Shown piece after piece: positions 1 to 16,936 of a DNA stretch of 17,730 nucleotides (within the stretch, counting starts at the first letter, position 1; each line of letters starts with the position of its first letter). The DNA comes from Fidelibacterota bacterium (lineage in GTDB: Bacteria > Fidelibacterota > Marinisomatia > Marinisomatales > S15-B10): assembly GCA_002729175.1 (NCBI GenBank), contig PBTS01000076.1, forward strand, positions 1 through 17,730, written 5' to 3'. The notes below the pieces were generated by a model, which was given only the letters and a program-made list of their open reading frames with translations, was not told the origin of the DNA and made no database searches. A program made the position numbers and the translations under genes.

Positions 1-359
1 GCACGGAGATAGGTGAGATAATCCATCTGCTGCTCACGCTGTTCATCTGTGATTTCAGGATGACTGCCGGCAAGATACTTTAATCTCTGAAACTGTTTCC
101 ATGAATAGTGACGTTTCTTTAACCGCCGACGAGACCTGTCCATAAAGACGATTTTAGCCATGTATCTATTGTCAGATATCTTATAGAACTGGGCACTCTC
201 AAACCCCTTGATATCAGGAAAGAGTCCCATAAGGATATTTTCAGCTGCATCTATGGAAGATCCCACTTTGATGGAAAGAACGACGACTTCAGGCTTCTGA
301 ACAGCCAGTAAAAACTGACAGAACAGAAAGACTGTCAAAATTGTTTTAACCGGATTCAA
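1..359 (-). CDS. Hypothetical secreted protein, 5' part only (runs off the left edge)
   Basis: Manual translation gives an open frame from TTG at 359 to the edge: (M)NPVKTILTVFLFCQFLLAVQKPEVVVLSIKVGSSIDAAENILMGLFPDIKGFESAQFYKISDNRY... The N-terminus looks like a signal peptide. The start overlaps the end of the upstream selenoprotein gene, and in-frame TGA codons lie just before the TTG. Confidence 0.7.
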   Translation of the reverse strand, partial: MNPVKTILTVFLFCQFLLAVQKPEVVVLSIKVGSSIDAAENILMGLFPDIKGFESAQFYKISDNRYMAKIVFMDRSRRRLKKRHYSWKQFQRLKYLAGSHPEITDEQREQQMDYLTYLR

Positions 360-576
360 TCAGATTCATGACTTCCCCATCATCAGGGAAGCGGTCCAGA
401 CTCTTTTTAGAAAAGATAAGATCACTATTCTTAATAACTTCAAATACGCCTCCTCCTGAGGGGATTAAAGTAAGTTCTTTCACATCGGTACCATATTTTT
501 CGAGTATTTCGTTCGCCAAACTGGCGGCTCTGGGAAGATAGTTTCACATACTACAATATTCGATCGATATGTTCAT
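346..576 (-). CDS. SelW/SelT/SelH (Rdx family) selenoprotein, 76 aa, Sec encoded by UGA at 546-544
   Basis: GGAGG RBS, then ATG at 576: MNISIEYCSMUNYLPRAASLANEILEKYGTDVKELTLIPSGGGVFEVIKNSDLIFSKKSLDRFPDDGEVMNLIESG*. It has the Rdx motifs I.IEYCxxU.Y..RA, LIPS.GG.FEV and IFSKK...RFP. The TGA falls exactly at the second position of the CxxC/U motif. Confidence 0.93.
514..526 (-). promoter_or_regulatory. Candidate bacterial SECIS apical hairpin
   Basis: mRNA CGCCA-GUU-UGGCG hairpin. The loop starts 22 nt after the UGA and has a G at its start, consistent with the bacterial SECIS model. Confidence 0.55.
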
Positions 577-716
577 GTTGCCTCCAATCCAAAAAATGTA
601 TAAATCCAGAAAGCACCTAACACGGCAATCATCCCTGCCAAAATCAGTAGAATAAAAATCGCCTTGTCAAACCCTTTCCTGCCGGAATCAAACTTTAATA
701 CTGTCTTCATGTCCAT
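573..716 (-). CDS. Small single-pass membrane protein, 47 aa
   Basis: MDMKTVLKFDSGRKGFDKAIFILLILAGMIAVLGAFWIYTFFGLEAT*. It has one clear hydrophobic helix, fills the gap between neighbouring genes, and its stop overlaps the selenoprotein start (ATGA). Confidence 0.65.
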   Translation of the reverse strand: MDMKTVLKFDSGRKGFDKAIFILLILAGMIAVLGAFWIYTFFGLEAT

Positions 717-738
717 AAAATTACAATAAGTAACGAAT

Positions 739-2979: not shown

Positions 2980-3003
2980 TGTATTGCTAAAAGATTAGTT
3001 AGA

Positions 3004-3180
3004 CTAGTCGCTGTCTGACTGAAGAATCACAGGAGGATTAGCCTCCTGGAGAATGGACTTAAGCTCAGCCAGCACCTCTCTTGCTGGTGGCCAGAGATCT
3101 TCTTCCATATCTCCGCCGCCCTGCTCGAAAGCTTTGATCCTTTCAGCAACTTTATTGAGAATTTCTGTGTGATTTTCCAT
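3004..3180 (-). CDS. Small hypothetical protein, 58 aa
   Basis: Manual translation: MENHTEILNKVAERIKAFEQGGGDMEEDLWPPAREVLAELKSILQEANPPVILQSDSD*. Composition is protein-like and helical; it ends 24 nt before the FecR gene on the same strand. Confidence 0.65.
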   Translation of the reverse strand: MENHTEILNKVAERIKAFEQGGGDMEEDLWPPAREVLAELKSILQEANPPVILQSDSD

Positions 3181-3370
3181 TGATTGTTACCAAACCTATT
3201 CCAAATCCTAATTTAATCAAAAATAACTTACTTCTGTTTGATATGGATCACGCGGCGGAAATGAATTGATTTACCCCGTCAGCAACAACTAAATTAGCCC
3301 TAAATAAGTCATCATCGCTCTGTATTTTTCCTATCAAAATTGTAACTGATTATAATCTGAATCTCAGACA

Positions 3371-4666
3371 ATGGCAGACTTTTTCGATAAACTTATAGAA
3401 CAAGAACCTTACACCCAGTACACCCTGGATATGTTTTCCAGGAGCGCTGGGAAGGATCACGCTGAAATCGATCAGTTTGATAAATGGCGTCAAATGGTCA
3501 CAGGCGCCAACAAGTACACTTTTGAAGTCTCTCATCTAGCGGCTCAGCGGCCGGAGATCTCGGTTCGTCGGGAGAGCGGCGATGAGTATAATCTCATCAG
3601 CTTTGCCAGCTACAACTATCTAGGTTATTCATATCATCCCGATGTAGTTGATGCCGCAAAAAAAGCACTGGATCTTTACGGATTGGGTGCCACCGGTTCA
3701 CCCCTACTGAATGGCACTTTTGAAATCCACAATGAACTTGAGGATAAGATTGTACAATTCTTTGGACAAAAGGATTATGGTGTATCTCTCTTTTCTTCAG
3801 GTTATGGAGCAAATCTGGGCGTCATCTCAGCTTTCATTCATAAGGGAGATCATGTGGTTCTTGACCGCTCTTCGCATGCCTCGCTTATCGATGGTGCTAT
3901 TCTCTCACAGGGAAAAATCTCTCTCTTCCGTCACAACGATGCTGAATTCCTGGAAAAGGTACTGAAGCGCATCGATTACAAAAATTCTCGAATATTGGTC
4001 TGTTGTGAAGGGGTCTACAGCACGGATGGAGACTACGGAACACTGAAGGATATCATTGAGGTATCCAAGAAATACGGCGCCGCTGTGCTCGTTGATGAAG
4101 CACATTCTCTTCTTGTGGCAGGAGAAAACGGACGGGGTGTCTGCGAAGAACAGAATGTTTTGGCAGATGCTGATATGATCATTGCCACTTTCAGTAAATC
4201 TTTCGGCGGAGTAGGTGGTTGCGTCTATGCAAAAAAGAAAATTACCAACTACATGAATTACTATGCCAGATCTCGCATGTTCTCCTGTGCTCTGGATCCA
4301 GGTGTGACAGGAGGCCTCATCAAATCCATTGAACTTGCCGGAGGCACCGATGGAAGTGAGAGAAGAAAACGGATTATCGATAATGCAGACTATCTTAGAT
4401 CCAAGCTGAAGGGACATGTTGACATCGGCACTTCATCCAGCTGGATTATACCGATTATTTACGGAGATGAAAGACTCACCCTCCCCCTGAGTGATTATCT
4501 TCAGCGAGAAGGGATCGATATTTCACTCATGATGTTCCCGGCGGTACCGAAAAACCGGTCAAGAATCAGGGCTTTTGTTACATCCGAGCACACAAATGAA
4601 CAACTGGACAAGGGTGCAGATATTATTCTCCGTGCTGCTGATAAATACAACTTTTTGATAGGATAA
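3371..4666 (+). CDS. PLP-dependent alpha-oxoamine synthase (serine palmitoyltransferase / 8-amino-7-oxononanoate synthase family)
   Basis: Motifs SYNYLG, GATGSPLLNGT, SGYGAN, HASLIDG, FRHND, EGVYSTDGD, VDEAHS and TFSKSFGGVGG (PLP lysine). YNYLG, DEAHS and TFSKS look more SPT-like than BioF-like. Confidence 0.9.
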   Translation: MADFFDKLIEQEPYTQYTLDMFSRSAGKDHAEIDQFDKWRQMVTGANKYTFEVSHLAAQRPEISVRRESGDEYNLISFASYNYLGYSYHPDVVDAAKKALDLYGLGATGSPLLNGTFEIHNELEDKIVQFFGQKDYGVSLFSSGYGANLGVISAFIHKGDHVVLDRSSHASLIDGAILSQGKISLFRHNDAEFLEKVLKRIDYKNSRILVCCEGVYSTDGDYGTLKDIIEVSKKYGAAVLVDEAHSLLVAGENGRGVCEEQNVLADADMIIATFSKSFGGVGGCVYAKKKITNYMNYYARSRMFSCALDPGVTGGLIKSIELAGGTDGSERRKRIIDNADYLRSKLKGHVDIGTSSSWIIPIIYGDERLTLPLSDYLQREGIDISLMMFPAVPKNRSRIRAFVTSEHTNEQLDKGADIILRAADKYNFLIG

Positions 4667-4672
4667 TAGGTC

Positions 4673-5365
4673 ATGAAACATACTCCCGGTGAAGACCTTT
4701 TTGTTTGGGAATTCGATTTTGCACTGACCACTTTCTTCGAAGTGGAGACCGATCTGTTTCAGCAGCACATCCCTTCTCGGCTTAGTCTTATGGAAGTATC
4801 TCCGGGTGTAGGACTGGTAAATATTACCGCCTTCAATTTCCCTGAGGGTGCTCTTGGTGAACTTCCCGAGTTCCAGGAGCTTATTTTCAGTGCCATCGTT
4901 TCGCCTGATCTTTCTCGGGGAGTACCAAAGTTTGCTATGTATGTCCTTTCACTCGGTAGCACCTGCCAGGAACATTTAGATCACAGTGCTGATTATTACA
5001 AGCTTCCCATACATGGACTGCTTACCGACACTAAAATCGATTCAGAAGCAATCGCTATTGATTATTCAGACAGTGACGGTCAGATCCTGGCTATGAACAA
5101 CTGCTCACCCACTACCAATTTCAGGGATGAGGAAAGATACTTTCAGGCGTTTACTTCAGATGGTGACAATCTCACTATTGCAGACTGTTATATCGAAGCT
5201 CAACTCTTTGAGCATCAGTTGACTGAGGATGCAGGAAAATTGAATGTGCACCCTTTCCTGAAGAACATTGATTTCGATCTTGGGGATCCCCTCCCCTATC
5301 TACAGATGATTGGCCAGCCTGGGAAGACCGGAAAACAGTTCTACTACCGTCCAACCTCTTTCTAA
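4673..5365 (+). CDS. Hypothetical protein, possibly acetoacetate decarboxylase/DUF2071-like fold
   Basis: 230 aa ORF starting 6 nt after the oxoamine synthase. The pattern (IPSRLSL...GVGLVNITAF...EFQELIFSAIV...MYVLSL...YYKLP) resembles ADC/DUF2071 proteins; the family call is tentative. Confidence 0.6.
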   Translation: MKHTPGEDLFVWEFDFALTTFFEVETDLFQQHIPSRLSLMEVSPGVGLVNITAFNFPEGALGELPEFQELIFSAIVSPDLSRGVPKFAMYVLSLGSTCQEHLDHSADYYKLPIHGLLTDTKIDSEAIAIDYSDSDGQILAMNNCSPTTNFRDEERYFQAFTSDGDNLTIADCYIEAQLFEHQLTEDAGKLNVHPFLKNIDFDLGDPLPYLQMIGQPGKTGKQFYYRPTSF

Positions 5366-5429
5366 ATAACTCCCAATTGGTCAATTTAGTTTTAATTGCT
5401 ACAGGCCATAGTATTAGATAAACAATATA

Positions 5430-6359
5430 ATGGATCATAAGAAAAACGCTCTTAATGCAATAGGAAACACCCCTCTTGTCCGTTTAAAAAAGGTTGTTCC
5501 CAGTCACTCAGCTGAGGTTTGGGTAAAACTCGAAGGGGGTAATCCTACTGGTTCATACAAAGATCGTATGGCATTATCCGTCCTTACTAGTGCTATTGAA
5601 AGAGGAGAATTATCTCCGGGCGATACTGTAATTGAATACACTGGAGGGAGTACCGGGACAGCATTGGCTTTTGTCTCAGCTGTTCTTGGTCTAAAATTTG
5701 TTGCAGTATTTTCTGATGCATTTTCAAAAAGTAAACAACAGGAAATGGAAGCTTTTGGTGCCGAGGTCACTGTCATAAAAAGTCAAGGTGGAGTTATCAC
5801 ACCAGACTTGATCCAACAAATGAAATTACGGGCTTATGAAATGGCGGAAAAACCTAACACTTACTATGCAGACCAATTTGGATCTCCTGAAGTTCGATCT
5901 GGATACAAGCCTCTGGGTATGGAAATAGCACAGAAACTTGATGGAGAACTTGATCTTTTTTGTTCAGCGGTAGGAACTGGGGCTGCCTTGATGGGATCTT
6001 ATGACGGTCTGTTAGAATCACATGTACAAGTAGACCTAGTAGCATTTGAGCCTTTGCAATCCCCATTTCTTACAACAGGGAAAGGCGGACCCCATCTTGT
6101 TGAGGGAATTGGTGTAGGATTTGAACCTCCATTTCTGGACCGATCTAAGTTAAAAGAAATTAGAGCAATTGATCAAGAACACGCTTTCAAAATGTGCCAA
6201 CGTCTAGCCAGAAAAGAAGGAATATTTTGTGGAGGATCAACTGGTTTGAATGTTGTAGCAGCAATCGAGCTTGCAAAAGAAATTGGACCCGGCAAACGGA
6301 TAGTCACTCTTGGTTGCGACAATGGGATGAAATATCTCGGTAGCCATATATATATGTAA
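5430..6359 (+). CDS. Cysteine synthase family PLP-dependent enzyme (CysK/CysM-like, atypical substrate loop)
   Basis: IGNTPLVRL, KLEGGNPTGSYKDR (PLP lysine), VGTG, EGIG, ARKEGIFCGGSTG and CDNGMKYL. The canonical EPTSGNTG reads EYTGGSTG. Confidence 0.9.
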   Translation: MDHKKNALNAIGNTPLVRLKKVVPSHSAEVWVKLEGGNPTGSYKDRMALSVLTSAIERGELSPGDTVIEYTGGSTGTALAFVSAVLGLKFVAVFSDAFSKSKQQEMEAFGAEVTVIKSQGGVITPDLIQQMKLRAYEMAEKPNTYYADQFGSPEVRSGYKPLGMEIAQKLDGELDLFCSAVGTGAALMGSYDGLLESHVQVDLVAFEPLQSPFLTTGKGGPHLVEGIGVGFEPPFLDRSKLKEIRAIDQEHAFKMCQRLARKEGIFCGGSTGLNVVAAIELAKEIGPGKRIVTLGCDNGMKYLGSHIYM

Positions 6360-6441
6360 AGATGTAATTCGAGTAGTGGTCTGGTTTCCTTTATTTCTGG
6401 AAATTATTTCCATCCAATATTTTTTGTTTATTTGAACCTCA

Positions 6442-6500
6442 GTGGGTACTTCTTTCATCCCGACCGTCCCCCCGTCACATATCAGGTTGAGATTGGGAAA
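6442..6500. repeat. Dispersed intergenic repeat, copy 1
   Basis: GTGGGTACTTCTTTCATCCCGACCGTCCCCCCGTCACATATCAGGTTGAGATTGGGAAA; aligns by eye with the copies at 10881, 11183, 12453 and 13115. Confidence 0.9.
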
Positions 6501-6580
6501 GAGGATGACCGATATGAGTCCGGAATACCAGATAAAAGTTTCTAATAAATATTAAGTTGTTTCTTTTGAGGGTTGTTGTC

Positions 6581-7954
6581 TTATGAATAGTCCAGCCCGA
6601 ATCCACTCAATTTCTTTTTGCATCCTTCATACAGGTCCAGGTATTTCTGCATCGGCTGCACCGTTTCCATATCGTAGCATTCATCGAACCGCTTGCCAAG
6701 AGGCGCATCGGATATCCGCGATTCGTACAAATCCAAAAGTCGCTTCACGATTTCGTTGGCGTGAGTCCGTGTCATACCCTGCCGGGCTGCAAGATGCCCT
6801 GCTTCCGCTCCGATGCGCGCCTCCATTCCTGTTGCCCGTTCCGGATGACGATTGCTTGCCACGGCCACCAGATTCAAATCTCCACCAGACACAGTGGATG
6901 CCAAAACATTGGCCACAATCTCGTAGACCACCATCTCGGTACATGGCCCGGCTGCGGCGAAAGGACTGATGGTAACCAGGAGATGGGTATTTCGGCTCAA
7001 AGCCTGTGTAGCGATGCTGATCAGCCACAGAAGCTCCCGCGTGGTATTGCAGAAGTGGTGGATATGCAGCGGGAAGCAGCAGTGCCACTGCGCCTCAAAC
7101 GCGAGCAACCCCAGGAAATGGTGCGCCACAAGCACCACGGCCGTCGATTCCGGTCCGCCGGCATACCCGCCCATCAACGGTCCGTACAGCCCGTACTTGT
7201 TGTGTCCGCTGTTCCGAAGAAACGCGACCTTTTTCACACGTTCATAGTCTATCTTCAACTCGGATATAGCAGCGATGGCCAGTCCGTCATTCGGCAGCAC
7301 GCCGAAGTCAGCCTGAACAGCGGCGAGGATGGCATCGGTCTGTTCAGCATTGGAAACCAGATTATGAATTCCGATCCCGGGCCGTCCGGCTGCCTTGGCC
7401 GCCTCCCGCAGTTTAATTACGTTCCAGATAGCGGCCTCTACCTCCTGGGGGGTCCCCGACTTGATGGGGCGACCATGAACGGTCTGGCTAAAAGCGCTGG
7501 AAAAGGTGTCGGCCAGGGGTTCCTGGGCGAAACTTTGTACCATAGGAACAAACCGCTCTTCGGCCACCGGTGCACCGACGGGTGTGCATAGACAAAACGG
7601 CGGCCGAGTGTCCTCGATACTCCGGCAGGCCATCACCGCCAGATCCTTTCCCTGTCCGTAGGTCACGGTGGTTGGGGCATGTTTCAGCGCCTGTTCCACT
7701 TCCTTGCGGGTAAATTTCAAAACACGACCTGTATCCCGGCAGAACATGCCCAGCTCCAAAAACAGATCGAGACCTGCCTGGTACACCCGATCCACCAGAT
7801 CCTCATCGGAAGGGACTACCTGCTCCGGATCATACCGGATGTCATACCGCTCGACGATCTCGCGGGCGGTCTGCGCCACTTTCCAGTCAAATTCCTCTTC
7901 TTTCACAAGCGTCCCGCTTTCGCTGCGACCGATCACATCCCAGAAACTGATCAT
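6581..7954 (-). CDS. mtmB: Monomethylamine:corrinoid methyltransferase family protein (MtmB homologue 1, non-pyrrolysine)
   Basis: 457 aa. MtmB motifs AGRPG.G, ELKID, GGYAGG, AGPCTEM and TGMEAR, with C-terminal GKRFDECYD. His197 (CAT at 7366-7364) occupies the Pyl position. Confidence 0.9.
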   Translation of the reverse strand: MISFWDVIGRSESGTLVKEEEFDWKVAQTAREIVERYDIRYDPEQVVPSDEDLVDRVYQAGLDLFLELGMFCRDTGRVLKFTRKEVEQALKHAPTTVTYGQGKDLAVMACRSIEDTRPPFCLCTPVGAPVAEERFVPMVQSFAQEPLADTFSSAFSQTVHGRPIKSGTPQEVEAAIWNVIKLREAAKAAGRPGIGIHNLVSNAEQTDAILAAVQADFGVLPNDGLAIAAISELKIDYERVKKVAFLRNSGHNKYGLYGPLMGGYAGGPESTAVVLVAHHFLGLLAFEAQWHCCFPLHIHHFCNTTRELLWLISIATQALSRNTHLLVTISPFAAAGPCTEMVVYEIVANVLASTVSGGDLNLVAVASNRHPERATGMEARIGAEAGHLAARQGMTRTHANEIVKRLLDLYESRISDAPLGKRFDECYDMETVQPMQKYLDLYEGCKKKLSGFGLDYS

Positions 7955-8610
7955 GATACCTCACCTCCCCGCTTCTCCTGCATCAGACTTCTGGCAACTT
8001 CTACAGCTTTTGTCGCGTTTTCACCATAGCCGTCAGCGCCGATCTCTGCCGCCCACTCGGCCGTCACCGGTGCGCCGCCGATCATGACACGGTATTTGTC
8101 CCGCAGCCCCAGTTCACCCAGAAGATTGATAAGGTCAGGTTGATAGGTCATGGTGGTGGTCAACAGCGAGGAGGCGCCAATGATATCAGCGCCCAGCTCC
8201 TCCGCCTGCTCCACAAACCGGCGGACAGGTACGTCATAACCCAGATCATGGACCGTAAAACCGTCCGCCTGCAGCATGATTTTTACGATATTTTTACCGA
8301 TTTCATGTACGTCACCCTGGATGGTTCCCAGGATGATGGTGCCCTGGCTTCCGTGCCCCGGGCGCTCCAGAAGAGAGGGTCTGAGTACCTCCATGGCAGC
8401 ACTCACGGCGTTGGCCGAGAGCATTACCTCGGCCAGAAAACATTCCAGAACAGCGAACCTGTCACCGACGACGTGCATCCCTTTTGTATACCCCTCCTGA
8501 ATAGCCTGGACAGGATCTACACCCTCGTCCAGGGCGACCCGGGCAAGGGCCGCGCACTGCTCTTTATCCCCTTTAATCGTGGCTTCCGCCATCTGTTCAA
8601 AGAGATTCAT
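7951..8610 (-). CDS. Corrinoid (B12-binding) protein, MtmC/MtbC/MttC family
   Basis: GTIQGDVHEIGKNIV (DxHxxG), SSLLTTT, MIGGAP and IGADGY; N-terminal cap helices; ATGA overlap with mtmB-1. Confidence 0.95.
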   Translation of the reverse strand: MNLFEQMAEATIKGDKEQCAALARVALDEGVDPVQAIQEGYTKGMHVVGDRFAVLECFLAEVMLSANAVSAAMEVLRPSLLERPGHGSQGTIILGTIQGDVHEIGKNIVKIMLQADGFTVHDLGYDVPVRRFVEQAEELGADIIGASSLLTTTMTYQPDLINLLGELGLRDKYRVMIGGAPVTAEWAAEIGADGYGENATKAVEVARSLMQEKRGGEVS

Positions 8611-8649
8611 CTTTGCGTTTACCTCCAGATGAGGTTTCCGGAGAGACTC

Positions 8650-10029
8650 TTAATACGGAAACGCCACCCCCATGGTGGCTATCTCGTCCTTCACCTTATT
8701 GAACATATCCAGGTACCAGGACATAGGGCGCGAAACGCGTACGTCATAACACTCCTGGAACGGCTTGCCCTTGGGTGCGTCGGCGATCCGGTCTTCGTAT
8801 TTCTCCAACATTTTCAGGGTGATATCGTTTGCCTGCTCCCGGGACATTCCCTGCTGTGCCGCGGCGTGTCCCACCTCACATGCCAGACGCGCTTCTAGCG
8901 GCGTAGCATAGTTACGATATTTGTTGTGCGCTACAGCGGCTTCCCACAGGTGTCCACCGGACACGGTACTGGCAAGTCCGTGGGCTGCCGCCTCCCACAA
9001 CACCATTTCGGTTCCGGAGCCGGCATTCAGGAAGCCGTTAGATGTGGACAGGATGTCACTGTTGCGGCTAACGGCCTGTTGCGTCACACTCACCAGCCAC
9101 AGCATCTCCCGCCCGCTATTGGAGGTGAAGTGAAGATGGAACGGGAAACTCTGCTGGAAATTCGCCTGATAGATGGTCAGTCCAGCCAGGTGATAGGCTG
9201 TTTCCAGAATGGCTGTGCCCTCCGCGCGGCCGGCATAGCCGCCGTAAATAGATCCGCTCAGACAACCGATGAAACACCCGAACTGCATGCAGTGGACCAC
9301 CTTATTTAGCAATTTATTGTCGATCTTCAACTCGGTCAGTGCGCCTATAAGCCGCCCATCGGTGTATCGTACCCCCCACTCATCATTACTTACCGCAACC
9401 TGGCCTGTGTCGGACTGGGCCGTACCCACGGCCACCAGGAACATTCCCGGCTTCCCTGCCAACCTGACCGCCTGCCGCAATCCCATCGCATGTTCCACCA
9501 CCCCGGCCATCTCAGTCGGCGCGCCGGACTTGATTTTGAGTCCCATACTTTCCTCCAAAATCGGCGCACATACGCCGTCGGCCAGCGGCTCCTGGATGTA
9601 GGCAATGGACATCGGTAGAAAAATTTCCTCATCACAGGTGATGTCAGGACTGAAAATACAGAACGGCGGCGCATCGGCCTCCGGCACACGACTCTTCCAC
9701 AGGCGAGCATCCTTCCCCGCGCCAACGATGTAGCGACCGGGAGTGTGATACAGCGCCTCCTGCAGTTCTGAGGCGTCCACCAAAATCCGGCGGTGGGTAT
9801 CCACGTTAAGTACGCCTACCTCTAAAAAAAACTCTACCGCCGCCTGCCAGACACGGTCGGCCAGGTCGTCATCCGCCGGAACGGGCATGTCAGAGTCATA
9901 GACAATGTCGTACTTCTTAATCACCTCCTGCATTTTGGGCATGAAAATCTCATAGGTGAATTCGTCGTCTTCACAGAATGGACCGGAGTTCGCCCGTTCT
10001 ACGATTTCCCACATCTTATACGGTAGCAT
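8650..10029 (-). CDS. mtmB: Monomethylamine:corrinoid methyltransferase family protein (MtmB homologue 2, non-pyrrolysine)
   Basis: 459 aa. AGKPGM, ELKID, GGYAG, AGSGTEM, TPLEAR and GKPFQECYD. Val199 (GTG at 9435-9433) occupies the Pyl position. Confidence 0.9.
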   Translation of the reverse strand: MLPYKMWEIVERANSGPFCEDDEFTYEIFMPKMQEVIKKYDIVYDSDMPVPADDDLADRVWQAAVEFFLEVGVLNVDTHRRILVDASELQEALYHTPGRYIVGAGKDARLWKSRVPEADAPPFCIFSPDITCDEEIFLPMSIAYIQEPLADGVCAPILEESMGLKIKSGAPTEMAGVVEHAMGLRQAVRLAGKPGMFLVAVGTAQSDTGQVAVSNDEWGVRYTDGRLIGALTELKIDNKLLNKVVHCMQFGCFIGCLSGSIYGGYAGRAEGTAILETAYHLAGLTIYQANFQQSFPFHLHFTSNSGREMLWLVSVTQQAVSRNSDILSTSNGFLNAGSGTEMVLWEAAAHGLASTVSGGHLWEAAVAHNKYRNYATPLEARLACEVGHAAAQQGMSREQANDITLKMLEKYEDRIADAPKGKPFQECYDVRVSRPMSWYLDMFNKVKDEIATMGVAFPY

Positions 10030-10678
10030 CGTTTGTCCTTTTCTCTGCCATCACACGCTCCAATATTTCAACCGTCACGCCGGCATTCTCTCCCCAGCTA
10101 TCGGCGCCGCATTCCGTCACCCACGCTTGCGTTACCGGCGCACCGCCGACGATCACGTGGTACTTCTCACGGATCCCCTTCTCCTCAAGGATCTTGACAA
10201 TGTCCTGCTGCCCAGGCATCGTCGTGGTCATCAGTGAGGACACACCGATGATATCGGCTTTCACTTCCTCGGCTTTGCGCACAAAATCCAGAGCGTTGAC
10301 ATCAAATCCCAAATCATATACCTCGAAACCCTGGGCCTTGAGCAGGCAGACCACCACGTTCTTGCCGATCTCATGCACATCGCCTGCGATCGTTCCAATA
10401 ACCATCGTGCCCTTCTTCTGGACGGACATGGCCGATTTCTGAAGCTCCGGCTCCAGTATTTCCATCACCGCCTGCATGGCCCGCGCGGACAGCATCAGTT
10501 CCGGAAGAAAAATTTCCATACGAGCGAACCGTTCCCCAATCTCGCGCATCCCCACAGTCAACGCTTCGATGATCTCCTCCACATCGGTGCCTGCCTGAAC
10601 TATCTGCTCTGCTGAAGTTGCAGCCTCGCCTTCTTTTCCGTCCTGTACAACCTCAACCAGTGATTGTATTGATATCAT
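10016..10678 (-). CDS. Corrinoid (B12-binding) protein, MtmC/MtbC/MttC family
   Basis: GTIAGDVHEIGKNVV, SSLMTTT, IVGGAP and FLPEL; overlaps the start of mtmB-2 by 14 nt. Confidence 0.95.
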   Translation of the reverse strand: MISIQSLVEVVQDGKEGEAATSAEQIVQAGTDVEEIIEALTVGMREIGERFARMEIFLPELMLSARAMQAVMEILEPELQKSAMSVQKKGTMVIGTIAGDVHEIGKNVVVCLLKAQGFEVYDLGFDVNALDFVRKAEEVKADIIGVSSLMTTTMPGQQDIVKILEEKGIREKYHVIVGGAPVTQAWVTECGADSWGENAGVTVEILERVMAEKRTNDATV

Positions 10679-10797
10679 TGTTGCAGTAACCCCTTGTTAC
10701 ATTTGAAAGACCATATATCACTGATCTGGATTTCTAACAGTTCTGTCTTTTCTATAATCATTTTCTATCTATTAATAAAATTAATCTACCATTTGAA

Positions 10798-10821
10798 CCT
10801 TATAAGTAAAAATTTATAAGG
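10798..10821. promoter_or_regulatory. Palindrome CCTTATAA-N8-TTATAAGG, candidate operator
   Basis: Perfect 8-bp inverted repeat about 120 bp upstream of the corrinoid/MtmB operon, in AT-rich intergenic DNA. Confidence 0.35.
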
Positions 10822-10880
10822 ACAATAGATATACCCCGCATCTATGGATAGTCGGGTACGGGGGCTATAGACATAAACTC

Positions 10881-10911
10881 TCACGATGTGGGTGTTTCTT
10901 TGATCCTGACC
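10881..10911. repeat. Dispersed intergenic repeat, copy 2 (short)
   Basis: TCACGATGTGGGTGTTTCTTTGATCCTGACC, 8 nt beyond the DUF2164 stop codon. Confidence 0.8.
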
Positions 10912-10919
10912 ACACCTTA

Positions 10920-11159
10920 TTATAATATTGGTTTTGTCAAAATATAGATCTCATCAATCAAAGTTTCAGTCCTTTCATTAATGAGACTGTGTACATCTGA
11001 AAGTGCCTCATTATAGAAAAATCCTCCAATCTTTTCCGCAAAGAAATCAAGAAGAAATTCAGCATCTAAATTCCCGATTTCCTGGTCAAGATTCTCTCTA
11101 AACCATTCTTGAATTTCTTGAGTGATTTTTACTTTATTTTCTTTGGACAATTTTATCAT
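10920..11159 (-). CDS. DUF2164 family protein, 79 aa
   Basis: Family pattern I.LSKE.K...I..IQ.WF.E.LD.EIG.LDAEFLLDFF.E.IG..FYN.AL.D; GGAGG RBS. Confidence 0.85.
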   Translation of the reverse strand: MIKLSKENKVKITQEIQEWFRENLDQEIGNLDAEFLLDFFAEKIGGFFYNEALSDVHSLINERTETLIDEIYILTKPIL

Positions 11160-11182
11160 GAGTCTACCTCCAAAAAATTATA

Positions 11183-11242
11183 TCACAATGTGGGGCTTCT
11201 TTCATCCCCGACCGTCCCCCCGTCAGTTTCAAGGATGAGATT
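11183..11242. repeat. Dispersed intergenic repeat, copy 3
   Basis: TCACAATGTGGGGCTTCTTTCATCCCCGACCGTCCCCCCGTCAGTTTCAAGGATGAGATT. Confidence 0.9.
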
Positions 11243-11281
11243 TTAGGTTAAGAAGCATCACGTTAAAATTGAATGCATCCC

Positions 11282-12430
11282 TTACTTTATGACCGGTTTG
11301 CCATCTCTGACCCAAATCTGATCCCCCACCGTCACGGTTGCATCGGTAAAAAAGTTCCAGCGGACATAAGGTCGTTCACCACCTACCGCCCCGCCAAGCT
11401 CTGAATTATCGCCCAACGAAAGACGAACGACTCCCGCACCGTAACCATAATAGGGGACCCACGGATTTCGTTCCGGCACCGCCAATTTGGGATTAAAACC
11501 CAGTGCAAACTCTCTGAATCGACGTCCCACATCGCCCGCCTGTTCCATCTCGGCTTCAACATTTTCCTTTCCTGACTTCGCACTGACTTTCACTACAATT
11601 CCATCAACAATCTCAAGCTTGAGACCGATGACCGGACCTCCGTTCCACTGGGATGGTGGAAACGCAATGGTGCCGCGAACAGATTCCTCCAAAGGGGCGA
11701 CACGGACCGCTCCCGCCGGCAGTTCAATTTCCCGGTCAATCAGGATCACACCACGGTCTGTCCGCGCCTTTGACGCATCGCCATCCTGTCTGTTTACCGG
11801 TCGGTCACCAATTCGGAAACGGATATCTGTTCCAAGCGGTGTGGTCACATGCACTTCCCTGTTTCGCATCGCCCGTTCGAAACGGAGCTGAATTTTTGCC
11901 AGCGTGTCATAGTCACTGTTCAGCACAGCCCGCTGGTATAACGCGTCTATGTCCCTCGGTTCGGGCATCGGCTGACCCGGGAGGGGATATGCGCTTCGGT
12001 TTTCCAACCAGTGAAAATGGACTGTGCGGCTCTTACCAGATCTCAATATATCTTGCATTGCGGCATAGGCAGGATGTTGTGGAGTTGCTCCCGGCAGCAT
12101 CACCGACGCATCAATATCTTTGAACATTTTCCGGTACGCTTTTCTGGAAGGTTCCGCGCCGCGCTTGATAACATCCGGATCCAACTCGCTTGATGGAAGA
12201 ACGTCGATCACGCCGAGATCAACCGCTCCCGCTTTCATCACCTCATAACGCAGAGGTGGAATCAGATCGCGGAACATATCCGGATGGGCCACAAACAGAA
12301 CCTTCTCTCCCTGCCCCACCTCCATGCGCTCGACTATCACACGTGCCAACTCCGGCCAGTCCAGTCTTAGGCGCTCTTGGGCAGAGGAAAAGCTGAAAAG
12401 AATAAGCAGTATGGCTAGGGGCTTTTTCAT
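11282..12430 (-). CDS. Secreted peptidase M29 (aminopeptidase T/AmpS)-fold protein with apparently degenerate metal site
   Basis: Signal peptide MKKPLAILLILFSFSSA. M29-type segments VHVTTPLGTDIRF, LPAGAVRVAPLEESVRG, EFALGFNP, LSLGDNSELGG and terminal ATVTVGDQIWVRDGK. Confidence 0.75.
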   Translation of the reverse strand: MKKPLAILLILFSFSSAQERLRLDWPELARVIVERMEVGQGEKVLFVAHPDMFRDLIPPLRYEVMKAGAVDLGVIDVLPSSELDPDVIKRGAEPSRKAYRKMFKDIDASVMLPGATPQHPAYAAMQDILRSGKSRTVHFHWLENRSAYPLPGQPMPEPRDIDALYQRAVLNSDYDTLAKIQLRFERAMRNREVHVTTPLGTDIRFRIGDRPVNRQDGDASKARTDRGVILIDREIELPAGAVRVAPLEESVRGTIAFPPSQWNGGPVIGLKLEIVDGIVVKVSAKSGKENVEAEMEQAGDVGRRFREFALGFNPKLAVPERNPWVPYYGYGAGVVRLSLGDNSELGGAVGGERPYVRWNFFTDATVTVGDQIWVRDGKPVIK

Positions 12431-12452
12431 TTATTTCCTCCAAAAAAATACG

Positions 12453-12517
12453 TCACTATGTAGGTGCTTCTGTCATCCTGATCATCCCCCGTCATTTACC
12501 AGCTTGAGATTGGGAAA
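12453..12517. repeat. Dispersed intergenic repeat, copy 4
   Basis: TCACTATGTAGGTGCTTCTGTCATCCTGATCATCCCCCGTCATTTACCAGCTTGAGATTGGGAAA. Confidence 0.9.
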
Positions 12518-12619
12518 ATGGTTGAGAAAGCTGATGTAAACGCATAATGGGGAAACTACCTCTCTGGAGGCAAACTAAGGAGAGATAGCGGGAAAATCAA
12601 TCAAGGAAGGAAGGTCTAG

Positions 12620-12654
12620 AAACAAAAAAGCCCCTTCCTGGGGCTTTTTTGTTT
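12620..12654. terminator. Rho-independent terminator (bidirectional form)
   Basis: AAACAAAAAAGCCCC-TTCCT-GGGGCTTTTTTGTTT: perfect 15-bp inverted repeat with a GC core and T-tracts on both strands, 21 nt past the stop of the 123-aa gene. Confidence 0.9.
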
Positions 12655-12675
12655 ACAAGTAAGTATATTTTTGAA

Positions 12676-13047
12676 CTACGATTTTCTACTATTTACGAAA
12701 AATAATATAGAAAAAACAAAATTCATTCCCGTGCTAATGAAGTTTGGTGCGGTAGATGGTGATATTCCCACAGCAATGTCATACACTCCCATAACACCAA
12801 ATAGTCCCCAAAAAATCGCAGTTACCATCCCAAAATTTGAGAGATTTTCTCCAGCCCACATTGGGAGAGTCCAATGAAGTGTGGCAAGTGCGGCCATTGC
12901 CATGCCCATATACCTCATTAAAACTCTTAAGTCAGGCGATGAATTCCAGCCAAATGTTTCTTCAACCATCGAAGGTAAGAACCACATTTGCAAAACCCAC
13001 AATACCATGAAACCAGCTGCAAGCTTAAAAATTAATGGTAGGTTCAT
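12676..13047 (-). CDS. Hypothetical integral membrane protein, 123 aa (about 4 TM helices)
   Basis: Four hydrophobic segments; GAGGAG RBS; followed by a terminator. Confidence 0.85.
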   Translation of the reverse strand: MNLPLIFKLAAGFMVLWVLQMWFLPSMVEETFGWNSSPDLRVLMRYMGMAMAALATLHWTLPMWAGENLSNFGMVTAIFWGLFGVMGVYDIAVGISPSTAPNFISTGMNFVFSILFFVNSRKS

Positions 13048-13114
13048 ATTGACTCCTCATTGTTAGTTAATCGATAAATGACTCGAGATTTAATCAAATT
13101 TCAAAATAATTATG

Positions 13115-13143
13115 TCACGATTGGATGCTTCTTTCATCCCGAC
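13115..13143. repeat. Dispersed intergenic repeat, copy 5 (short)
   Basis: TCACGATTGGATGCTTCTTTCATCCCGAC, 12 nt beyond the stop of the 92-aa gene. Confidence 0.85.
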
Positions 13144-13155
13144 AGTTACAAAAGA

Positions 13156-13434
13156 TTATTGTGGTGGTTTCATCTCATTGAGGGTAAAAAATTCATGATA
13201 CTCAATATATGGTTCCACCATTTTTTTAAATTCTGGGTCTGATGCTCGTTCCGCCATCGCTGCCATATCAACATTTTTCATGATTATGATTGCAGTATTA
13301 TCATTAGCCTTCCCATATAGGAAATTACCATTATTTACCTGCTCCTGATTATCTTCATGAGAAAGAAATAAATTTTCCCATGTTTCATAATCACATTTTA
13401 AATGGGCAATTGATGCCATATTTACTTGTTCCAT
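13156..13434 (-). CDS. Hypothetical protein, 92 aa (possibly a small dimeric alpha/beta-barrel-like fold)
   Basis: GAGGA RBS and a protein-like sequence (CDYETWENLF...YGKANDNTAIII...); the fold suggestion is tentative. Confidence 0.75.
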   Translation of the reverse strand: MEQVNMASIAHLKCDYETWENLFLSHEDNQEQVNNGNFLYGKANDNTAIIIMKNVDMAAMAERASDPEFKKMVEPYIEYHEFFTLNEMKPPQ

Positions 13435-13522
13435 GTTTTTATCCTCTACCTTATCATTATTTTGATAAAAAGGAAAATTAGATTATTAAAATTTCCCCTT
13501 CATGTGCCATAAGGAGTTTATA

Positions 13523-13666
13523 ATGGCTGAAGTCTATTATAGCTACGGCATTACCACGCAAATTGCGTCAATCAGAGGCAGGAGGGTGATTATTTCAGGA
13601 ATAAGGGAAGTAGTGGTAGCTAATCAGGAAGTACAGTTACGAAAAAGCCTTAATTATTCCCAATAG
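13523..13666 (+). CDS. Possible small ORF, 47 aa
   Basis: AAGGAG 6 nt before the ATG: MAEVYYSYGITTQIASIRGRRVIISGIREVVVANQEVQLRKSLNYSQ*. No recognisable family. Confidence 0.3.
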   Translation: MAEVYYSYGITTQIASIRGRRVIISGIREVVVANQEVQLRKSLNYSQ

Positions 13667-13750
13667 TCAAAACATATCCTACCCATATAGTAGGGGTCAT
13701 GTCACACCAGGCCGCTGGTTTGAGTAGCTATTACACTTCAGATAAATATC

Positions 13751-15181
13751 TTAATCACTCACTATATCTTCATATTTCGCAATAATTGCATCGCCCTTTT
13801 CAATAAGGTCATTTGCAATCGGCTCAACCTGGTGCGTATCTAATATGCCCTTCACTATTTTATTGGCTTCAGCAGGCAGTTCCTGCTCGTCCATTTCCAG
13901 CAGGTCAAATTTTCCTCTTTCCCAGGATGAGAGTTCGCCTCTAAGATATTTCAGAGTGTGGGGATGCATCAGGAAGTCACGTCCATGCCCAACTTCTTTA
14001 ACAGCATCCAAACCTATCTTCTCTTCTGATATTTCTACTTCATTCATATAATTTTTGGAGCAATCCCACATATAGGAATCGACAATAAACTGTTCAAAAG
14101 AGATTCCTTTAGCGGAATCAACACACCCATAACCGGTAGCGAGGTCCGAGCCGCCCATTATCCCTGCAAGTTGACTAAAAGGCGTGAACAATCCTGAAAC
14201 GCTGGCTTCTATCCCGTCACCCCATCCGCCATCAGCAACAAGAGATGGCAGGTTGTATTTTTTTGCCATTTGTGCTGCCCCAATACATAAATAGATCTTT
14301 TCAGGCGTATCATAATCTATGCTACCTGTTGCCATATTCATTGGCCCTGACTCGGAACAATAAATGTGGGGTGCACCAGGCGCCGCTATCTGTGAGATTA
14401 CAATACTTCCCAGGTTTTCAGTGTTGATATTTACCAACATTCCCGCTACTGGAAGAGGACAAGTTGCACCACCATTTGACATGGACATGGAAGCGACGGG
14501 GATTCCGGCTTTTGCCAGTTCTACCTGCGCTTCAATGGAGCCTTGCTCATAGGTCAATGGTGCGATAGGGCATATAATTACGGAAAAGAGGGGTCGTCTT
14601 TTTAATTCTTCTTTTCCGCCTGCTATAAGAGCTGCCAGCTCAATCTGCACCTTTGCAATTTCAGAACTTTGCGCTGTAACGCCTTGAACATGCTTGGAAG
14701 TATTCAGCATGGTCGTCCACAATTCATGGGGACCATGGGCAAGAGGTGAAACATCTGTTGCGGTTAATGCTGTCCAGAGAAAATCAAGTGAATCAACTGC
14801 ATCTCCAAGTCTTGTAAACGCAGCAATATCCTTTCTGGTGGAATTACGATACTCTCCAGTTTCATAATCTTTAACAAAAACTGCAAGTCCGCTGGTAGTC
14901 ATCCACGGATATGTTTTAGTAGGAACTTTTAGATCATGCTTCGGATCGCGGGCGCACAGTGTGAACTCTTTTTGAACGCTTTCAAGAGCCTGGTCAACAA
15001 TCATTTCAGGAATTTTGGCAACCATCGCATTATAATCCACACTCGCTCCATTCTTCTCAAGCAATTCAAGAATAGGCTTGCTGAGAACTTTAATACCAAT
15101 TTCCTGCAGGCTTTTTATACTTTGAGCATGAATCAGATTCATCTCTTGTTGGTATAAAAAAACTGTTTTTGCCTTGGCCAT
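13751..15181 (-). CDS. mttB: Trimethylamine methyltransferase (MttB) superfamily protein, non-pyrrolysine
   Basis: 476 aa. IH..S...L.EIG, LCARDP, NTSKHV, PIAPL, GATCP.PVAG, Q.AAPGAP, AAQMAKKYNLP, SFEQFIVD and VGHG.DFL.HPHT. No amber codon; the Pyl region reads LPSLVADGGW. Confidence 0.92.
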   Translation of the reverse strand: MAKAKTVFLYQQEMNLIHAQSIKSLQEIGIKVLSKPILELLEKNGASVDYNAMVAKIPEMIVDQALESVQKEFTLCARDPKHDLKVPTKTYPWMTTSGLAVFVKDYETGEYRNSTRKDIAAFTRLGDAVDSLDFLWTALTATDVSPLAHGPHELWTTMLNTSKHVQGVTAQSSEIAKVQIELAALIAGGKEELKRRPLFSVIICPIAPLTYEQGSIEAQVELAKAGIPVASMSMSNGGATCPLPVAGMLVNINTENLGSIVISQIAAPGAPHIYCSESGPMNMATGSIDYDTPEKIYLCIGAAQMAKKYNLPSLVADGGWGDGIEASVSGLFTPFSQLAGIMGGSDLATGYGCVDSAKGISFEQFIVDSYMWDCSKNYMNEVEISEEKIGLDAVKEVGHGRDFLMHPHTLKYLRGELSSWERGKFDLLEMDEQELPAEANKIVKGILDTHQVEPIANDLIEKGDAIIAKYEDIVSD

Positions 15182-15562: not shown

Positions 15563-16936
15563 TTAAAACTTGAATCGGACACCTAATTCCCCTAATTCCG
15601 CTTTGATTTTTTTATACAATTGTTTGTATTCCAGAATTGGCTGTTTTGTTTTCATATTCCAACACTGTTCATAGGTTTTGCCATTTGGCGCATTTGGAAT
15701 ATCATCTTCATATTTTGCCAATAATTTTTTAACAATCTCATTTCCTTGTGAACGAGTCATCCCGATTACACCATGCGCAATTTCCGAAGCCCATTTTGGT
15801 TCCATCGGCGTGAAATGATCAACTTCAACGGCCTTTGCAACACCTCCAAATTCTATAGATGCTCCGGAAACAACAGCGTTTATCACAACCGCTGCGATTT
15901 CATACAGGCACATTTCCGTCATCGGACCGGCTGCCACATAATTAAGAATAAAGAAGGGGAAATGACTGTTTCTGCTAATAGCCTGTGCACTAGCGCTATT
16001 GGCCCATATAACAGCCCTATCACTTGTGCATCCATGATTGACATGAATTGGAAATGTGAGTTGACAAGAACCTTTCATTAAGAGTATAGAATTAAGATGG
16101 TAAGCAACATTAGTTACAGCAGTTCCTTCCGGCCCGCCACAATAACCACCTAAAATGGGTGCGGATTCTGCAACTATATGACCTCCTAAATTCATAACAA
16201 AAGCAATCTCATTTAATCTTTCAAAATTAATCTTCATCTCCGCTATAGTACCGATTAACCAACCATCAGTTGGTCTAAGGCCAAATTGACTTCCTGCAAT
16301 TTTAGCCGTATCCGAACCTGCAGAAGCTATTGCATTCATAATAGGCAGACCCGCACGGCCACCTTTTCGCAAAGCTGACCTGGCTAAAGTACTGGATCGC
16401 ATGCAGGCTAGGATTTCCAAAGGACTTTTGGTACGAACAAGTCTTCCTTCAATATACTTAATCGTCGGAGTGGTGATGGAATCGGCCAATGGAAGAAATG
16501 ATGCATAGGCCTCTAAAATACTTTCAAATAGCGTTTCATTGGACACGGCTGCTCCACCAGCTCCTATAAAGCACCACGGATCAATATCGCTTTCGGGCTT
16601 ACGAGCTACCAGAGCCTTGGCATCACTTCCTTCGCCAAATACCGGTCGACTAGTAGCTTCGGCCAAACCTTCCAGAATTTCTTCCTCGGTAAATTTTATT
16701 ATACGTTCTGTATCGACACAGTAAATTCCTACATTGGCAAATAGATCTATTCCTGCCTTAAAAACTCTGTCTGCTAAATCGTCATCACAGGACAAAGGAT
16801 TTTCAGGATCATACTTAATTTCATATTTTTTTATTAATTCCCTTAGCTTTGGAACAAAGATATTTAAATCAAAGTCTTTTTCAGAAGTGAAGGGCCCTTC
16901 CAATGCCCTATCTATGATTTCTATAAGATTTACCAA
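15563..16936 (-). CDS. mtmB: Monomethylamine:corrinoid methyltransferase family protein (MtmB homologue 3, non-pyrrolysine)
   Basis: 457 aa, TTG start. GGRAGL, EMKIN, GGYCGG, AGPMTEMC, GVAKA, TPME and GKTYEQCW. Met200 (ATG at 16339-16337) occupies the Pyl position. Confidence 0.9.
   Translation of the reverse strand: MVNLIEIIDRALEGPFTSEKDFDLNIFVPKLRELIKKYEIKYDPENPLSCDDDLADRVFKAGIDLFANVGIYCVDTERIIKFTEEEILEGLAEATSRPVFGEGSDAKALVARKPESDIDPWCFIGAGGAAVSNETLFESILEAYASFLPLADSITTPTIKYIEGRLVRTKSPLEILACMRSSTLARSALRKGGRAGLPIMNAIASAGSDTAKIAGSQFGLRPTDGWLIGTIAEMKINFERLNEIAFVMNLGGHIVAESAPILGGYCGGPEGTAVTNVAYHLNSILLMKGSCQLTFPIHVNHGCTSDRAVIWANSASAQAISRNSHFPFFILNYVAAGPMTEMCLYEIAAVVINAVVSGASIEFGGVAKAVEVDHFTPMEPKWASEIAHGVIGMTRSQGNEIVKKLLAKYEDDIPNAPNGKTYEQCWNMKTKQPILEYKQLYKKIKAELGELGVRFKF

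Follow-up and report, generated by a model that had tools for sequence, protein, structure and literature searches.

What is the repeated element that separates unrelated blocks of genes in a 17,730-nucleotide stretch of DNA from a Fidelibacterota bacterium (contig PBTS01000076.1 of assembly GCA_002729175.1; this whole stretch is hereafter the window), and how did those blocks come to lie between its copies? A reading of the sequence alone, which we term the original prediction, had pointed to five same-orientation copies of an intergenic direct repeat between gene cassettes of alternating G+C content, and had proposed that they mark an undescribed gene-capture platform or serial integration at one att site, with the recombinase encoded elsewhere. 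We find that these copies belong to a larger family of strictly oriented elements that lie before gene starts, that the gene content of close relatives changes at or inside them, and that their gene-proximal end resembles a promoter. Our leading interpretation, held tentatively, is that the element would be a portable promoter and linker that doubles as a homology patch for the exchange of gene modules by host recombination.

An oriented repeat family at the joints of gene modules

A 221-position nhmmer profile was built from the four full-length copies of the source metagenome-assembled genome (MAG), here G000 (1.83 Mb in 87 contigs, the window being its contig C82). With it, five copies are recovered in the window. 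They share the minus strand with every gene between 6581 and 17638, and their starts fall within 7-17 nt of the places originally given for them. In profile positions (m), copy c1 (6442-6509, m129-196) consists of the distal arm and the core without the -10 end. The array ends with this joint, beyond which come a 65-nt spacer (6377-6441) and a conserved cysteine-synthase-like flank. Copy c2 (10874-10916, m168-210), which abuts the stop codon of a DUF2164 gene, retains only the core and part of the proximal arm, c3 spans 11166-11261 (m120-220), and c5 (13101-13146, m171-217) again comprises the core and the proximal arm. Copy c4 (12437-12643, m3-219, E 1.6e-60) is of full length, about 207 nt, and was aligned with the three other full-length copies of the genome. 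It begins just past the terminator of the upstream gene and runs through a TTGAYT-17-TAGTTT promoter-like pair, the core and a T-run to the ribosome-binding site of an M29-like aminopeptidase gene. The earlier remark that some copies are half-sites is borne out, with c1 lacking the gene-proximal end and c2 and c5 the distal part; its description of the repeat captured real copies but stopped about 125 nt short of the extent of c4. Viewed along the gene strand, the element, which ranges from 100 to 210 nt, lies directly upstream of gene starts and also downstream of the preceding gene. A chance origin can be excluded, because the core 17-mer with up to three mismatches has 25 matches in the genome as against one for a reversed control pattern, and the longer copies have profile E-values of 1e-12 to 1e-60.

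The window is one of several such places. At E < 0.05 the profile finds 24 copies on 11 contigs of G000, four of them complete and the others cut short on one side or the other; this dispersal does not fit a single array grown at one att site. In every multi-copy contig the copies are co-oriented (C82 5/5, C59 4/4, C11 3/3, C63 3/3, C49 2/2, C71 2/2), and the genome-wide scatter in both orientations that would betray an ordinary dispersed repeat is not seen. A same-strand open reading frame (ORF) starts within 400 nt downstream of 19 of the 24 copies; the remaining five comprise two that point toward a gene on the opposite strand and three at the ends of contigs. In marine metagenomes the element was found in at least 131 stretches, from which 72 loci were retrieved and analyzed. 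These loci hold 131 copies, and 36 of the 37 with more than one copy are fully co-oriented; the next ORF is on the same strand in 91 of 101 cases and the previous one in 91 of 99. The most extensive array, in the 20-contig MAG G004, packs 12 copies into 8.2 kb of one strand with mostly single ORFs between them, which code for a methyltransferase, a glyoxalase, an amidohydrolase, a lipocalin-like protein, a flavin adenine dinucleotide (FAD) oxidoreductase, a DUF protein and several orphans. Similar arrays occur in G002 and in metagenome contigs with four to six copies.

The element is present in 10 of 41 related genomes, with G000 counted: in three genera of one family (g1, 3/3; g2, 3/4; g6, 2/2), with genera g3, g4 and g5 yielding none, and as a 24-nt match in a second family. 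It appears to be specific to a lineage of the marine Marinimicrobia (Marinisomatota, SAR406). Copies from different genera are 86-92% identical, as against 70-76% for the surrounding genes. A viral origin was rejected, as two 20-22-nt core patterns have no match among the viral contigs of IMG/VR. Spread beyond the phylum is doubtful: three matches came from short contigs labeled otherwise, two as Dehalococcoidia (L096, L104; DLRJ01) and one as Nitromaritima (L099; JBGTUV01), and the two Dehalococcoidia-labeled contigs are probably mis-binned Marinimicrobia DNA, since they are 86-91% identical to G000 flanks.

Relatives with near-identical flanks (94-99%) differ in gene content at or inside the repeats. 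G003 is collinear with window 1-6376 at 96% and, from 17 nt past the cysteine-synthase-like gene, carries a different module with a SnoaL-like lipoprotein and other repeat copies. Metagenome locus L168 has the same flank, the 65-nt spacer and the truncated c1, and continues upstream of m130 into yet another module. The block of corrinoid-protein and MtmB-like genes between c1 and c2 has no match in the 14 family genomes searched; it is 93.9% identical in metagenome locus L139, where it lies between two other repeat copies and where the match ends at m175 on one side and m197 on the other. The M29-like gene between c3 and c4 is 95-96% identical in G001, G002 and G003, with every neighbor different. 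Its upstream break is the start codon in all four genomes and its downstream break lies inside the repeat (m136-139 in G001 and G002; m216 or beyond in G003). The distal half of c3 travels with the gene in the three relatives. Two high-G+C blocks unique to G000 (C59 3829-10213 and C49 5182-7604) are also bracketed by repeats. In an all-against-all comparison of the retrieved loci, 54 of the 107 ends of long matches of at least 85% identity touch a repeat in at least one partner, and the repeats with 40-nt margins make up, by a rough estimate, about 6% of the compared sequence. The claim that gene content changes at the repeat therefore stands, and relatives that keep one gene order without breaks at the repeats were not what we found.

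These breaks do not share one position. Where the upstream module is shared, similarity is lost at m175, 188, 190, 193, 198, 199, 199, 213, 213 and 219; where the downstream module is shared, it is lost at m119, 124, 125, 132, 135 and 161. The breaks thus fall in preferred zones, the core and the start of a 100-nt unit, with a spread of 15-40 nt, which departs from the single crossover point of the att-site proposal. The junctions hold microhomologies, namely ATGAAA, which the core has in common with the beginning of the M29-like gene and with a second, small repeat; AGGAG, which sits at ribosome-binding sites; and TTTGGTA, which lies where the repeat, at its T-run end, meets the D-loop of a tRNA-fMet-like fragment. 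We rejected ATGAAA as a special junction word: 10% of long G000 ORFs begin with it, and its presence at junctions is for that reason weak evidence.

Some of the arrays also lie near tRNA genes. In G004, 112 nt separate tRNA-Ser(CGA) from the start of the array, which has a second tRNA-Ser 3' fragment within it. In several genomes the T-run of a repeat is immediately succeeded by a diverged partial tRNA-fMet, which spans the 3' two-thirds from the D-loop onward (G000:C59 1-56; L175, about 6455-6515; L139, about 3540-3600; L056, about 12000-12060; also G004), and genuine tRNA-fMet genes lie on C38 and at C58:5975-6049. A called tRNA lies within 170 nt of a repeat in three of the 72 metagenome loci (tRNA-Ser, tRNA-Met and tRNA-Lys, at 112-166 nt). 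No tRNA lies beside the array of the window.

Promoter-like anatomy, ends and candidate enzymes

On the gene strand the last 40 nt of the element comprise ATGAAA, a 17-nt spacer, a TG-extended TATAAT and a T-run, followed by GGAGG and a start codon. In a promoter scan of 7.5 kb (6300-13800) the two best-placed sites fall inside c3 (10/12, with TG) and c5 (9/12, with TG). The site in c3, the best of the region, runs from 11205 to 11177 with exactly these hexamers and spacing, and the GGAGG and start codon of the DUF2164 gene come directly after the copy. That in c5 runs from 13137 to 13109, with ATGAAA, a 17-nt spacer and CATAAT with TG, and is followed by a 52-nt leader that G002 has on a different gene. 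The ~23-bp core of the original prediction (m176-199) coincides with this -35/-10 pair, and full-length copies have a second pair, TTGACT-17-TAGTTT, about 100 nt further upstream. The gene-proximal 40 nt are accordingly predicted, on sequence grounds, to form a sigma-70 promoter of the extended -10 type that ends just before the ribosome-binding site. The ATG of the core was considered as the true start codon of the downstream genes and dropped, as inspection of truncated copies by eye showed the frame to run for 3-19 codons before a stop.

Mapping of the ends of 246 distinct copies, which gave 241 3' ends, reveals two different borders. The 3' ends are sharp, with 165 of 241 at m211-220 and 97 of these at m216-217. 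The 5' ends are ragged from m1 to m180, with a peak at m120 (19 copies), a full-length class at m6-15 (25 copies) and a continuum up to m180. Nearly every column from m50 to m200 is conserved at 80-99%. Two direct CTCAACC motifs, 19 nt apart, lie upstream of the -35 hexamer, and the core holds a small imperfect dyad of 5-6 bp, within which 13 of the 27 3'-truncated copies of our first collection end (m186-192). Most copies were retrieved with an exact 22-mer of the core, so covariation in the dyad could not be used.

A second junction motif of about 22 nt, resembling TGAAACGCCTCTGGCTCAAAT, occurs right after stop codons between successive low-G+C genes (G000:C11 2943, 3685, 4304 and 9344; G000:C59 13156 and 10592). 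In places it is fused to the ATGAAA of the core, or precedes a terminator and the start of a full copy.

The element shows no sign of acting as a folded strand. RNAalifold on 28 aligned copies, with both strands considered, returned no pairs and no consensus structure. Folding as single-stranded DNA gave -5.4 and -5.7 kcal/mol (z +1.95 and +1.75), which is worse than shuffled sequence, and folding as RNA was unremarkable (z -0.57 and -0.14). This lack of a single-strand or consensus fold excludes attC sites, hairpins of repetitive extragenic palindromic (REP) sequences or of miniature inverted-repeat transposable elements (MITEs), and IS200-type ends; the repeat thus appears to work as double-stranded DNA. 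No pair of inverse core sites (RYYYAAC/GTTRRRY) is present in the consensus of a 69-copy alignment, where TCTCAAC occurs twice but in direct orientation and with no GTTRRRY opposite. No 28-bp Xer/pdif dyad of two 11-bp arms, for XerC and XerD, separated by 6 bp, was seen in the consensus or alignment, to which no dif profile was applied, and all copies are direct. That the repeat is not an attC, pdif or CRISPR array, as had been argued from the start, therefore still holds.

Several other identities were tried and rejected. A known structured RNA or riboswitch finds no backing in the absence of a consensus structure and in an Rfam scan of the window at E up to 1, which has no match in the conserved body of any copy. 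Two weak matches lie over the terminator at the distal edge of c4 (a rimP leader at 12593-12693, below its gathering score, and the IS128 small RNA at 12617-12691). A MITE, REP or Correia-type repeat is at odds with the strict orientation and the lack of a fold, and a weak 10/13 terminal match noticed by eye gives no folding signal. Nor does a 70-nt MITE nested in the unit, suggested by a terminal 7-bp direct repeat and weak inverted ends, hold up, as it has no fold and the shared sequence extends well beyond it. Inspection by eye picked out mini-ORFs of 17 and 7 codons along the gene strand and, on the opposite one, a frame of 33 codons; these were rejected as coding because variation per codon position (0.176, 0.140, 0.142) has no three-base periodicity and the poly-G run has 1-nt indels.

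In terms of mobility enzymes, an integron integrase (TIGR02249) scores above the cut-off only in G005 (439 bits), a genome without the repeat; the best G000 match reaches 85 bits against a cut-off of 265. The G005 gene (C95:12729-13673), from a sister genus without the repeat, is a bona fide integron integrase, and classical integrons and this repeat hence occur in the same family and were not seen in the same genome. Serine recombinases (PF00239), Y1 transposases (PF01797), rve transposases (PF00665) and reverse transcriptases (PF00078) have no match in G000, G002, G003 and G004. Among tyrosine recombinases, these four MAGs have two Xer-like genes and occasional integrases, all located away from any repeat, and no repeat lies in the 11.6-12 kb around each of the integrases of G000:C6 (451 aa), G004:C18 and G004:C5. 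No recombinase was found among the array ORFs of these four MAGs, nor among 221 ORFs of at least 90 aa in the metagenome loci (of 257 in all, the other 36 being near-duplicates of annotated loci). The expected recombinase thus did not turn up beside any array or copy examined, nor did one with a fitting phyletic pattern. We regard this absence as no more than suggestive, as MAGs can miss mobile DNA.

Weighing the origins of the arrays

In the portable-linker interpretation that we tentatively prefer, full copies, which begin after the terminator of the upstream gene, would insulate and restart expression at each module joint. As the same 100-200 nt are kept 80-95% alike at many joints, they could serve as a homology patch through which modules are gained, lost and rejoined. 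General recombination, or recombination mediated by microhomology, would carry out the exchange, probably on DNA taken up from relatives, and the outcome would be co-oriented arrays, some seeded beside tRNA genes. The missing fold and enzyme, the scattered junctions, the microhomologies, the solitary copies and the placement before start codons all point to such a double-stranded, promoter-bearing linker; both its promoter activity and its recombination by host functions we infer from sequence comparison.

Several observations weigh against it. The identity of copies across genera exceeds that of the genes around them, and with the near-complete conservation of m50-200 it surpasses what a promoter needs, which would require very frequent exchange or conversion, or else a sequence-specific protein. 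Nearly half of the 3' truncations fall within 7 nt, as in a preferred crossover zone; c5 and c1 at the two ends of the window array are complementary half-copies, as hybrid att sites would be; and arrays that start beside tRNA genes and hold tRNA 3' fragments bear the footprint of an integrase. Moreover, c1, c2 and the copy on C58 lack the -10 hexamer and therefore cannot act as this promoter. The missing recombinase is itself weak evidence, since MAGs often miss mobile elements.

Much of this is what a site-specific cassette system of integron-like logic would leave, a reading that we consider doubtful though serious. In it the ~23-bp core with its dyad would be the crossover site, the distal and proximal arms would be parts of the upstream and downstream cassettes, respectively, and the recombinase would act in trans from elsewhere, be it an unassembled integrase, an Xer-like tyrosine recombinase or a novel enzyme. 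The co-oriented arrays of single unrelated genes in G004 and in nearly all multi-copy metagenome loci speak for it, as does their integron-typical content (glyoxalases, GNAT and APH enzymes, methyltransferases, DUFs). So do the end half-copies, the clustered truncations and the conservation between genera. Further, in two genomes the MtmB block has retained a distal arm of its own, with the match stopping at the core edge m175, the M29-like gene keeps its downstream arm in four genomes, and the tRNA footprints keep a site-specific option alive. However, no recombinase accompanies any array or solitary copy examined or has a fitting phyletic pattern; the visible junctions range over m119-135 and m175-219, and some lie outside the core, as in the M29 breaks of G001 and G002 or at repeat-free start codons. 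The dyad is short and imperfect, and many copies stand alone before ordinary genes. The layout of a gene-capture platform is thus present, as originally proposed, and a site-specific mechanism behind it is hypothetical. Should it exist, it might do the job of an integron with other parts, a double-stranded, promoter-bearing junction site recombined by a non-IntI enzyme, which is again no better than a doubtful prospect; that enzyme could possibly be a recruited housekeeping tyrosine recombinase or a novel protein.

The tRNA footprints could be taken further, in that the repeats might be the attP-side arms of small tRNA-targeting integrative elements akin to tycheposons, which piled up beside tRNA genes and decayed until cargo and arms remained and the integrases were gone. 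This we judge improbable. The tRNA-Ser beside the G004 array and its second 3' fragment, the tRNA-fMet 3' part after the repeat in G000:C59, L175, L139 and G004, and the three metagenome loci with a tRNA at 112-166 nt favor it, and a size of about 200 nt with internal direct repeats and no overall symmetry would suit an att arm. Intact elements make up only 3.6% of Prochlorococcus island material in the tycheposon report (10.1101/2020.12.28.424599). Against this, tRNA fragments are missing from most joints, and the majority of copies lie away from any tRNA (only those 3 of 72 loci have a called one within 170 nt). A length of 0.4-2 kb makes the modules too small for former elements, none of the arrays showed an integrase fragment, and the strict placement before start codons is left unexplained. 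Slightly less probable still is a purely cis-regulatory role, as the shared promoter or operator of a nutrient-scavenging regulon, with breaks falling there since intergenic DNA tolerates rearrangement. The downstream genes are indeed largely peptidases, amidohydrolases, sulfatases, glycosidases, transporters and methylamine methyltransferases, the repeat is oriented toward them, and the direct CTCAACC motifs lie upstream of the -35 hexamer. Yet conservation is uniform over 150 nt rather than in motif islands, copies are truncated on either side to the point of losing the -10 hexamer, others precede DUFs, glyoxalases and resistance-type enzymes, and half of the similarity breaks touch a small fraction of the sequence. 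Chimeric contigs joined at the repeat during assembly or binning are the least credible source of the pattern, to the point of being very improbable. G000 has 87 contigs, 7% contamination and scattered N calls, and several contigs end in or near a repeat, but the joints recur in independent MAGs and metagenomes (L150 matches the G004 array, L139 the MtmB block and L168 the flank with c1), and copies that differ by 10-25% diverge too much for k-mer collapse.

Among known systems, integron arrays and clusters of attC sites lacking an integrase (CALINs) offer the closest parallel in layout. They too have co-oriented, unrelated, often single accessory genes, each followed by a conserved repeat of 60-200 nt that is homogeneous within a lineage, and their cassette content varies between close relatives and includes glyoxalases, GNATs, methyltransferases and DUFs. 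They differ in that our repeat has neither the RYYYAAC/GTTRRRY pair nor the imperfect palindrome and single-strand fold, that no IntI is found in the repeat-bearing genomes, and that it has promoter-like signals toward the next gene, solitary dispersed copies and junctions that are not at one position. The Correia elements of Neisseria, ERIC and the pneumococcal BOX are multi-copy intergenic sequences of 100-200 nt, promoter-supplying, modular and variously truncated. Terminal inverted repeats or hairpins, and insertion in either orientation, set them apart from this strictly oriented repeat without inverted termini or a fold.

Putative mobile promoters, whose definition requires unrelated genes to be preceded by 50 nt or more of sequence at 80% identity or higher (PMC3575422), are matched in just this respect, as copies of that length and similarity precede non-homologous genes within one genome. 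Like them, the element is shared between genera and shows neither a link to any known mobile element nor a match in Rfam. Most of their families are pairs (Matus-Garcia, Nijveen and van Passel 2012; PMC3575422), whereas this one numbers about 24 copies in a genome and 131 or more in metagenomes, and tandem arrays and gene-content breakpoints of the kind seen here are unreported in that survey. Tycheposons (10.1101/2020.12.28.424599) resemble the present case in occurring in streamlined ocean bacteria without common mobile elements and in forming islands beside tRNA genes, with partial tRNA copies inside and nutrient-acquisition cargo. What defines tycheposons is a site-specific integrase together with hallmark replication genes, and tRNA parts make up their repeats; here no integrase or hallmark gene occurs among the array ORFs or the 221 metagenome ORFs, and the repeat is not tRNA-derived. 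We found no description of the element in the literature by title or opening of the abstract, a search that left subscription journals and supplements outside its reach. On balance, the element looks like a variant of mobile promoters and integrase-less cassette arrays, and we think it unlikely that it represents a new recombination system.

Its value lies in the organisms that carry it. SAR406 or Marinimicrobia are abundant, uncultured and genome-streamlined ocean bacteria that are, to our knowledge, almost devoid of transposases and integrases. The repeat provides a searchable handle on the acquisition and expression of accessory genes in this group. It marks the joints of the flexible genome, probably drives expression of the inserted genes, and can be used to mine marine metagenomes for the accessory genes of the phylum, including pyrrolysine-free MtmB-type methyltransferases. 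Were its recombination site-specific, it would amount to a new gene-capture system. Were it homology-driven, a portable promoter would serve as both landing pad and expression signal. If cassettes are exchanged by a non-IntI enzyme, captured genes would arrive with, or land behind, a ready-made promoter.

Gene modules of the window and further observations

The gene content between the copies is as originally noted, by Pfam and, for the last module, by the hydrophobic ORF itself. All four modules lie on the minus strand. The first (6510-10873; G+C 0.53-0.60) pairs a corrinoid-protein gene with an MtmB-like methyltransferase gene twice in tandem (6581-7954, 7951-8610, 8650-10029 and 10016-10678) behind a leader of its own of about 190 nt, and Pfam gives the order B12-binding, MtmB, B12-binding, MtmB over 6581-10678. 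The second (10920-11159; 0.34-0.36) is the DUF2164 gene, which has no match in the relatives. The third (11282-12430; 0.50-0.57) is the M29-like aminopeptidase gene, whose Pfam M29 match is weak. The fourth (12676-13047; 0.38-0.40) codes for a 123-aa hydrophobic protein with about four hydrophobic stretches; a hairpin and T-run lie 3' of the gene (about 12625-12652), and it is 87% identical in G004:C18, there without a flanking repeat. Set against the genome mean of 0.458, the alternation in G+C that had been judged by eye is real, and the repeat bounds compositionally odd gene blocks. The array is closed by a convergent gene on the plus strand (5430-6359) for a pyridoxal-phosphate-dependent, cysteine-synthase-like protein, the conserved flank, which is 96% identical to its counterpart in G003 and 81-87% identical to those in G002 and G001.

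Between c2 and the leader of the corrinoid/MtmB module lies a 56-nt insert with a G+C-rich inverted repeat (10818-10873), which is missing from the otherwise 94%-identical locus L139. The three full-length MtmB-family genes of the window (6581-7954, 8650-10029 and 15563-16936) have no in-frame TAG, and the product of the first has a histidine where the Methanosarcina barkeri MtmB structures (1tv2, 1nth) have pyrrolysine, at residue 202. An MttB family gene is found at 13751-15181. These genes, all beside corrinoid proteins in a bacterium, are by their sequences best described as pyrrolysine-free methyltransferases. ARAGORN calls an 87-nt tRNA-His inside an MtmB-like coding sequence, both in the window (7079-7165) and in L139 (4262-4348), which is probably a false positive.

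Two further features lie outside the array. An intergenic stretch of about 110 nt (13517-13629), single-copy in G000 and with no Rfam match, is 88-91% identical in G003:C73 and G008:C70, and its counterpart in G008 adjoins a repeat copy. Near the other end of the window, the gene for a 746-aa FecR-domain protein (739-2979) contains short imperfect direct repeats within its coding sequence (families D4, D7, D9 and D16), especially at 2190-2430.

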